Assembly: GCA_949077035.1 (NCBI GenBank)
Contig: CARUPR010000008.1
Span: 5,240-69,239 of the forward strand
DNA: 64,000 bases
Direction of reading: 5' to 3'
DNA from: an uncultured Eubacteriales bacterium
GTDB taxonomy: Bacteria > Bacillota > Clostridia > Christensenellales > UBA1242
Shown in pieces: positions 57,557 to 57,583 of this stretch. Both the position numbers and the translations under genes were made by a program. Numbering within the stretch: position 1 is the first letter of the stretch; each line of letters opens with the position of its first letter. The notes below the pieces were generated by a model. The model was not told the origin of the DNA. It was given only the letters and a program-made list of their open reading frames with translations, and did not search any database.

Positions 57557-57583
57557 ATTATACTCGGGGGGGGGAATTGTCAA
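57557..57583 (-). promoter_or_regulatory. sigma-A-type promoter with a C9 homopolymer in a 15-nt spacer (predicted phase-variable)
   Basis: Minus strand reads TTGACA-ATT-CCCCCCCCC-GAG-TATAAT. Confidence 0.65.

Follow-up and report, generated by a model that had tools for sequence, protein, structure and literature searches.

The gene for a 352-aa orphan repeat protein is preceded by a housekeeping-type promoter in which an uninterrupted run of nine cytosines fills most of the spacer between the -35 and -10 hexamers. It lies in a window of 64,000 nucleotides (the whole stretch of DNA that was analysed) from an uncultured Eubacteriales bacterium. Minus strand 57583-57557 reads TTGACA-ATT-C9-GAG-TATAAT (tract CCCCCCCCC), and our check of this strand confirms the reading given in the initial annotation, together with the Shine-Dalgarno (SD) sequence and the ATG at 57520. 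We are confident that the tract is promoter DNA and that the gene starts at this ATG. With more reserve, we lean towards the view that the site is a slipped-strand transcriptional switch, at which the length of the C tract sets the strength of the promoter.

The core promoter (57557-57583, minus strand; here called that of cassette 2) consists of TTGACA at 57583-57578, ATT at 57577-57575, the C9 homopolymer at 57566-57574 (G9 on the plus strand), GAG at 57565-57563 and TATAAT at 57562-57557. Both hexamers are perfect matches to the sigma-70/sigma-A consensus. Perfect TTGACA-N14-18-TATAAT arrangements are found five times in the window against 0.22 expected, and this promoter is one of them. 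Its spacer of 15 nt falls outside the 17 +/- 1 nt range for sigma-70/sigma-A promoters, as does the 15-nt spacer of a sister copy at 18.9 kb; another copy, at 56.1 kb, has 16 nt. The tract at 57566-57574 is a candidate slippage site: it is an uninterrupted stretch of more than seven G/C between -35 and -10, and one of only three G/C runs of at least 6 nt in the 64 kb. Directly 5' of the -35 lies an A/T-rich region resembling an UP element (aaatttattattttaaaaataatgg; 57584-57610, minus strand), a region for which 33 related promoters have a consensus in common. Downstream, an SD sequence (AAGGAG; 57531-57536, minus strand) is found 10 nt before ATG 57520. A terminator scan places the end of the upstream TM2-domain gene at 57742-57768 (minus strand). 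Given that this terminator closes the TM2-domain gene, cassette 2 requires a promoter of its own. Both the sequence and the window statistics presented below thus support a promoter with a C9 tract in its -35/-10 spacer.

The cassette is one of two with the same layout: a promoter, a repeat-protein gene (352 or 409 aa), an ORF of 35 or 41 aa, and a hairpin with a T-run. In cassette 2 the coding sequence for the 352-aa protein (56462-57520, minus strand) is followed by a 35-aa ORF (56354-56461, minus strand) whose ATG immediately follows the stop codon (TAAATG). A hairpin with T-run (cagcaacaattgttgctg-ttttttt; 56287-56311, minus strand) is the likely terminator; it was read from the sequence, its stem being too AT-rich for the terminator scan, which missed it. 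Cassette 1 encodes a paralogous repeat protein of 409 aa (54795-56024, minus strand) and a 41-aa ORF (54668-54793, minus strand). Equivalents of 32-41 aa follow the paralogue and homologues elsewhere (32-35 aa at L167, L170 and L172), and the large repeat gene and the small ORF look like a conserved two-gene unit. The 35- and 41-aa ORFs share the pattern M.INEFNDYMNKEFDKLI.KLCPPKK..., and the C-terminus of the large repeat protein is nearly always ...M(E/G/R)W. Together with the TM2-domain gene, the two cassettes (54668-58179, minus strand) are placed antisense inside a cluster for cell division and cell wall synthesis, flanked by ftsW (53217-54422) and murA (58319-59590). In other organisms a homologue of the repeat gene is found after rplA, adjoining a gene for a protein of ~2000-2900 aa.

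The 352-aa protein is built of ~26-aa units (IPQEIINQ..ANGG), after which comes a conserved helical domain at the C-terminus, with W as its last residue. Neither the repeat proteins nor the small ORFs could be assigned to a family with Pfam, NCBIfam, PHROGs, PADLOC or a PDB fold search. The description of the gene as 'LRR-like' in the initial annotation has to be abandoned: there is no LRR match in Pfam at E <= 0.1, and the AlphaFold2 model, computed on an alignment of 14 sequences (pLDDT 90.5, pTM 0.85), contains helices only. In this model, paired short helices recur every ~26 residues, and two long helices make up the C-terminal part. The PDB fold search gave, as its top matches, alpha-solenoids of the ARM/PUF type at insignificant values (E >= 0.08). 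Judged by its predicted structure, the protein is an orphan all-alpha solenoid. By inspection, both repeat proteins lack a signal peptide or lipobox.

Two sister copies of the promoter are present in the window. The core promoter of cassette 1 (56063-56090, minus strand; tract 56072-56080) reads TTGACA-ATTA-C9-GAG-TATAAT, with a spacer of 16 nt. A third module, overlooked in the initial annotation, reads TTGACT-TTA-C9-GAG-TATAAT (18887-18913, minus strand; tract 18896-18904), with a spacer of 15 nt. It is located 19 nt before the ATG of the gene that it drives, which encodes a lipoprotein (lipobox LFAC) with a Big_3 domain (18145-18867, minus strand). The spacer difference noted earlier between the two cassettes (15 against 16 nt) is real, but its source is an extra A beside the tract, both tracts being C9. 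A second near-consensus promoter, TTGACA-N17-TTTAAT, begins at 18949, only 36 nt upstream of the third module.

At a GC content of 32%, the window contains 13660, 2647, 428, 72 and 12 G/C runs of length 1 to 5, respectively. Runs of 6-8 nt are absent, whereas those of 9 nt number exactly three, each within this promoter module. Extrapolation of the roughly 6-fold decay per step would predict ~0.01 runs of length 9. The three C9 runs share the 18-nt context C9GAGTATAAT; likewise, CCCCCCCCCGAGTATAAT occurs three times in the window and not once in 100 dinucleotide-preserving shuffles. Aligning the three upstream regions leaves TTGAC-N-TT-N-C9-GAGTATAAT-N-AAGATA invariant. The tract is therefore over-represented with respect to base composition, and it is found at several loci of the same genome. 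Near-consensus promoters of the window that lack a tract have a spacer peak at 17 nt, against 15, 16 and 15 nt for the three tract promoters. Two tandem arrays of orphan paralogues, at 19073-21759 and 15655-17930 (both minus strand), have no C tracts in their promoters. The former encodes five proteins of ~150 aa. A Pfam scan of one of these (19073-19522) gave a match to Cys_rich_CPCC; a near-identical C-terminus (DIW.KVENPSY) is common to four, the copy at 19665-20138 having a different end. The latter encodes three paralogues of 226-235 aa.

To see how far the module extends, one genome per species was scanned for C7+GAGTATAAT, which gave 59 loci. About 20 of these are unrelated matches within coding sequence in other phyla. 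The others are promoters in metagenome-assembled genomes (MAGs) labelled uncultured Clostridia, Eubacteriales or Firmicutes, many of them gut-derived. Altogether 33 module promoters were collected from 18 low-GC Clostridia-type MAG species, with the consensus TTTTTnAAAAAA-nn-cTTGACA-AAT-C9-GAG-TATAAT-nAAGGTA. The tract is C9 in 27 promoters, C8 in three, C10 in two and C7 in one, and the spacer measures 15 nt in 21 promoters and 16 nt in eight. The GAG and the minimum of seven C are imposed by the search pattern (C7GAGTATAAT) and have to be read as ascertainment artefacts; copies met by chance in the fetched loci carry GATA, GCTT or GGT in the GAG position. A leader of 12-75 nt and then a strong SD follow the related promoters.

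The genes downstream of the related C9 promoters are diverse and nearly all orphans, some of them membrane or secreted. Their products include a DUF4116 repeat protein, a choline-binding-repeat protein and a fusion of sigma-70 region 4 with an alpha-CTD. This last, unusual protein (230 aa, Sigma70_r4 plus RNA-polymerase alpha C-terminal domain; L140, CANSRZ01) is driven by a C9 promoter at 139-165 and could, from its domain content, be a promoter-specific transcription factor. Tandem paralogues with individual C9 promoters are also seen at L137. Homologues of the repeat protein (P0001, P0003 and P0004) have ordinary promoters with 17-nt spacers and no C tract, and the lipoprotein homologue P0014 likewise lacks one, which indicates that the tract belongs to a promoter class and a lineage rather than to a gene family. 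The promoter of P0001 (L172/L173) reads TTGACA-AGGCCAGCCAGCCAGGG-TATACT, its 17-nt spacer containing a (GCCA)3 tetranucleotide repeat and no homopolymer. P0014 adjoins genes for an N6-adenine/Eco57I-type DNA methyltransferase and a small HTH_17 protein (L174, 2-1147, minus strand). An invertible promoter for P0014 was considered and rejected: this neighbour encodes a DNA methyltransferase rather than a recombinase, and the flanks show no convincing inverted repeats.

The same design is also seen with C11-C14 in CAYOSS01 (L114, L119, L143, L151 and L156; ~60% GC) and in GCA_037193285.1 (L178). There the spacers of 19-21 nt are above the optimum, and tract lengths differ between loci within a genome. 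In the leaders of several C9 promoters (L108, L118, L121 and L154) a perfect DnaA-box-like TGTGGATAA is found just past the -10; a link to essential genes of the dnaA type was rejected, as the downstream genes encode orphan membrane or hypothetical proteins. Promoters of the sigma-I type combine a C-rich -35 with a CGAA -10. This assignment was rejected as well, given that no conserved CGWA is found downstream and that TTGACA and TATAAT are perfect. A metagenome scan for GGTTGACAATT-N5-16-GAGTATAAT, a pattern that proved too permissive, yielded 101 stretches (82 listed), and a poly-C spacer was present in none of the loci fetched. Viral contigs scanned for C7GAGTATAAT gave 0 matches, and thus no sign of a phage origin.

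We then looked for variation in the length of the tract. The strain search, an exact-protein look-up, returned two samples only. The contigs of one (ERR3199668) are 100% identical to the window and hence represent the same strain, which leaves one independent comparison. In this single independent strain (SRR36216081) no tract-length change was found at the 57.5-kb locus. The strain is 99.65% identical to the window, with 22 substitutions and three indels over 7.1 kb, and it keeps the C9 tract and the whole core promoter even though seven of the differences are located within the 275-nt intergenic region. Among related loci, five of six ortholog/paralogue pairs (L121/L154, L122/L152, L131/L142, L125/L162 and L128/L141) have the same tract length despite diverged flanks. 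Only L133/L157 differs, with C10 and a 17-nt spacer against C9 and a 15-nt spacer. Spacers of 17-18 nt occur in one of ~40 tract promoters, so the presumed ON state is seldom the majority allele. Seen across these loci, the constant C9 and the conserved pairs point to stabilising selection or a length-specific function.

Changes in length are observed elsewhere. In a related species, a locus for a 125-aa protein is represented by 11 contigs, in which a C9 haplotype is found alongside a C8 haplotype that differs by one SNP (three samples); a third haplotype has AT-C9. Comparison of these haplotypes indicates that tract length changes on short time scales at this related locus. Across lineages the tract ranges from 7 to 14 and is most variable where it is longest: one high-GC MAG has C12, C12, C12, C13, C13 and C14, and another genome has C11 and C12. 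At related loci the run is also found as G9, abutting the -10, or within a 20-nt spacer. Both the G9 variant and the shifted position in the spacer argue against a binding site in fixed register. Interruptions of the tract are rare throughout the collected promoters, and copies that were found without ascertainment bias comprise six pure tracts and one decayed.

Runs of G8 and G9 are also present inside coding regions of the related MAGs. At L142 (CAMRTM01; minus strand, position 3522) an in-frame G9 (GGG) is located 36 codons into an ORF of ~970 codons, just past a hydrophobic N-terminal segment. At L144 (CANBAL01; plus strand, position 3440) an in-frame G9 (GGG) lies in an open frame of 243 codons, which, to judge from a glycine motif of the TGxxxGxG type, looks like a short-chain dehydrogenase. 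At L130 (CAOJSF01) a G9 (1249-1257 of the reverse complement) is placed exactly at a frameshift junction: G9 leaves a truncated open frame of 114 codons, and G8 would restore 180 codons. On the basis of this frame, the L130 gene is a candidate for translational phase variation.

Several explanations other than a spacer-length switch have to be weighed. Translation might start at TTG 57583, in which case C9 would be coding (PPP) and would turn the protein on or off by frameshifting. The frame is indeed open from this TTG through the tract into the gene: the six-frame ORF reads MTIPPPEYNKDINYSKRRLII ahead of Met 57520 and adds 21 aa, with C9 translated as PPP (MTIPPPEYNK...). However, the TTG coincides with the start of the -35 hexamer (bases 1-3) and lacks an SD, whereas a strong SD precedes ATG 57520. 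The N-termini of 12 homologues (31-42% identity) and of the paralogue align to Met 57520; all begin M-x-x-T-Q-x-D-I-N..GG, and the 21-residue extension is present in none. Moreover, the identical modules before the paralogue and the lipoprotein gene (56.1 and 18.9 kb) are found in non-coding DNA, and the ORFs downstream do not run through the tracts. We therefore consider a translational switch at this site very unlikely. The initial annotation was right in taking ATG 57520 as the real start and the extension from TTG 57583 (IPPPE) as artefactual, as is evident from the homologue N-termini, the SD and the public gene calls. Its expectation that gene callers would hide the tract in an N-terminal extension is not borne out, as the public assemblies call the 352-aa product from ATG 57520 instead (two Logan contigs). 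Still less credible is that the tract reflects chance, or an artefact of sequencing or assembly, for example one of the poly-G kind. In its favour there is only the general difficulty of sequencing G/C homopolymers, whereas the shuffles gave no match against the three observed, and the module is present in dozens of MAGs from unrelated studies. An assembly artefact is ruled out by the second, independent assembly (SRR36216081), which was obtained from a different sequencing run and has the identical C9 tract.

It might also be argued that C9 is a fixed cis-element, the conserved signature of a lineage-specific promoter class, and that slippage is incidental noise. The tract might then be a contact site for a regulator or an accessory factor of RNA polymerase, or a structure that enables the use of a 15-nt spacer, and selection would hold its length at nine. 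We regard this as the main rival to a switch, a possible but less likely explanation. It accounts for the uniformity of the module: C9 predominates (27 of 33 promoters from 18 species) and so does the 15-nt spacer (21 of 33), ortholog pairs keep C9 while flanking A/T runs change, the two strains at the 57.5-kb locus are identical in the tract, and each of the three window copies has exactly nine C. In addition, the small C9-driven protein with sigma-70 region 4 and alpha-CTD in a related MAG is a conceivable promoter-specific factor. On the other hand, the run may be G9, abut the -10 or sit in a 20-nt spacer, other lineages have C11-C14 with lengths varying between loci, and C8 and C9 both occur in near-identical haplotypes. 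Coding sequence, too, contains G/C runs of this length, in one case at a frameshift, and no candidate factor was found in the window. A modal length of nine, furthermore, is known from a proven phase-variable organism. In Campylobacter jejuni, with 31% GC, polyG/C tracts most often have a length of nine, 64-95% of them measure 9 or 10, and G6-G8 are scarce (PMC3401435). Its authors explain this mode by mutation and not by selection: tracts of G8/G9 are biased towards insertions, those of G10/G11 towards deletions (PMC3401435). The constant length of nine, which is the main objection to a switch, thus has a precedent, and the window shows the same length profile.

The slipped-strand switch, which we favour, would work as follows. 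The promoter is of the housekeeping type (sigma-A/sigma-70), its elements being at or near consensus except for the short, mostly C9 spacer. Transcription probably starts ~7 nt past the -10, near 57550, and translation starts from ATG 57520; with these two positions, C9 is neither transcribed nor translated. Slipped-strand mispairing in the C9 run during replication would add or remove a C, and gain or loss of a C would alter the distance between -35 and -10 and thereby the strength of the promoter. Tracts of more than seven G are classed as hypermutable, with 1e-5 to 1e-2 mutations per division (PMC4235727 Table 1). The spacer peak at 17 nt of the other promoters in the window leads us to predict that the 15-nt C9 allele is a low-expression allele; C10 and C11 would shift the spacer of cassette 2 towards the 17-nt optimum. 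The presumed ON length is taken from general promoter rules and the 17-nt mode of the window. Cassette 1 (ATTA-C9, 16 nt) would, through its extra A, be one step nearer to the optimum at equal tract length. Since each cassette and the lipoprotein gene at 18.9 kb have a separate tract, the three loci would vary independently.

The module belongs to a set of G/C9 tracts that spans the lineage; together they would constitute a repertoire of contingency loci. More speculatively, low-GC gut Clostridia may possess a genome-wide 'phasome' that is based on one promoter cassette (UP element, TTGACA, ~3 nt, C9, GAG, TATAAT), an extension that we put forward only tentatively. Mutational bias would then rest the length at nine and leave the promoter 2 bp short of its optimum. 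The result would be default-low, bet-hedging promoters for fast-evolving orphan genes, often in tandem arrays of paralogues. A stranger alternative is that an invariant C9 may be read by a dedicated factor and so define a new promoter class.

Most work on homopolymer phase variation concerns a few pathogens (Neisseria, Haemophilus, Campylobacter/Helicobacter, Bordetella and mycoplasmas), and our searches of the literature turned up no account of tracts of this kind in gut bacteria of the Clostridia type. Considering the whole of the analysis, the C9 promoters probably represent a known type of switch in a group for which it had not been described before. If they do switch, uncultured gut Firmicutes would share the bet-hedging logic of pathogens, and the tracts would mark which orphan genes these organisms vary. 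Annotation pipelines and variant callers should treat C9 tracts as regulatory hot spots and should not take them for sequencing errors or for the coding sequence of an N-terminus.

Comparison with known phase-variable systems reveals both similarities and differences. As in fetA, porA and opc of Neisseria meningitidis, an uninterrupted G/C homopolymer is located between -35 and -10. For porA, spacers of 15, 16 and 17 bp reportedly give no, reduced and full expression, respectively (a finding ascribed to van der Ende et al.), and this range of 15-17 bp is the same as observed here. Length of the promoter polyC or polyG tract sets high, intermediate or low transcription of the three meningococcal genes, known as 'transcriptional phase variation' (PMC13293289; PMC4235727 Table 2), and the polyC tract in the core promoter of fetA results in graded expression (PMC13293289). 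Neisseria, however, is a Gram-negative pathogen in which the targets are outer-membrane proteins and tract length varies a great deal from isolate to isolate. The present host is a low-GC, Clostridia-type bacterium that has not been cultured. Its targets are orphans, two of which have no signal peptide; the consensus length of the tract seldom departs from nine, and the usual spacer, at 15 nt, falls short of the optimum.

In fim2 and fim3 of Bordetella pertussis, too, paralogous promoters form a family in which every member has a separate poly-C stretch. The Bordetella C-stretch is ~13-15 long and acts with the activator BvgA rather than with a consensus -35, whereas the promoters described here combine a consensus -35 with the shorter C9 tract. 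In B. pertussis, single-C changes in the C-stretch switch fim2 and fim3 independently (PMC1891110, PMC10172299). Campylobacter jejuni has a comparably low GC content (31% against 32% here), the same mode of nine, a scarcity of runs of 6-8 nt and multiple tracts. Most of its tracts are located within reading frames on the coding strand and would thus act translationally (PMC3401435). The three tracts of our window and most of those in the related MAGs are, in contrast, found in promoter spacers, as parts of one standardised module. A parallel in a Firmicutes-related lineage is with the vlp genes of Mycoplasma hyorhinis, in which a homopolymer likewise occupies the promoter spacer; one of the targets in the window is a lipoprotein as well. 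The vlp genes form a family, each member having a conserved promoter with a poly-A homopolymer in the -35/-10 spacer; the ON length corresponds to a 17-nt spacer, and the targets are surface lipoproteins only. Here the run is poly-C instead of poly-A, and two of the products are repeat proteins without a signal peptide, unlike the typical products of phase-variable surface genes. The use of a single standardised module with an UP-like element is a further feature that sets the C9 promoters apart from the known systems.
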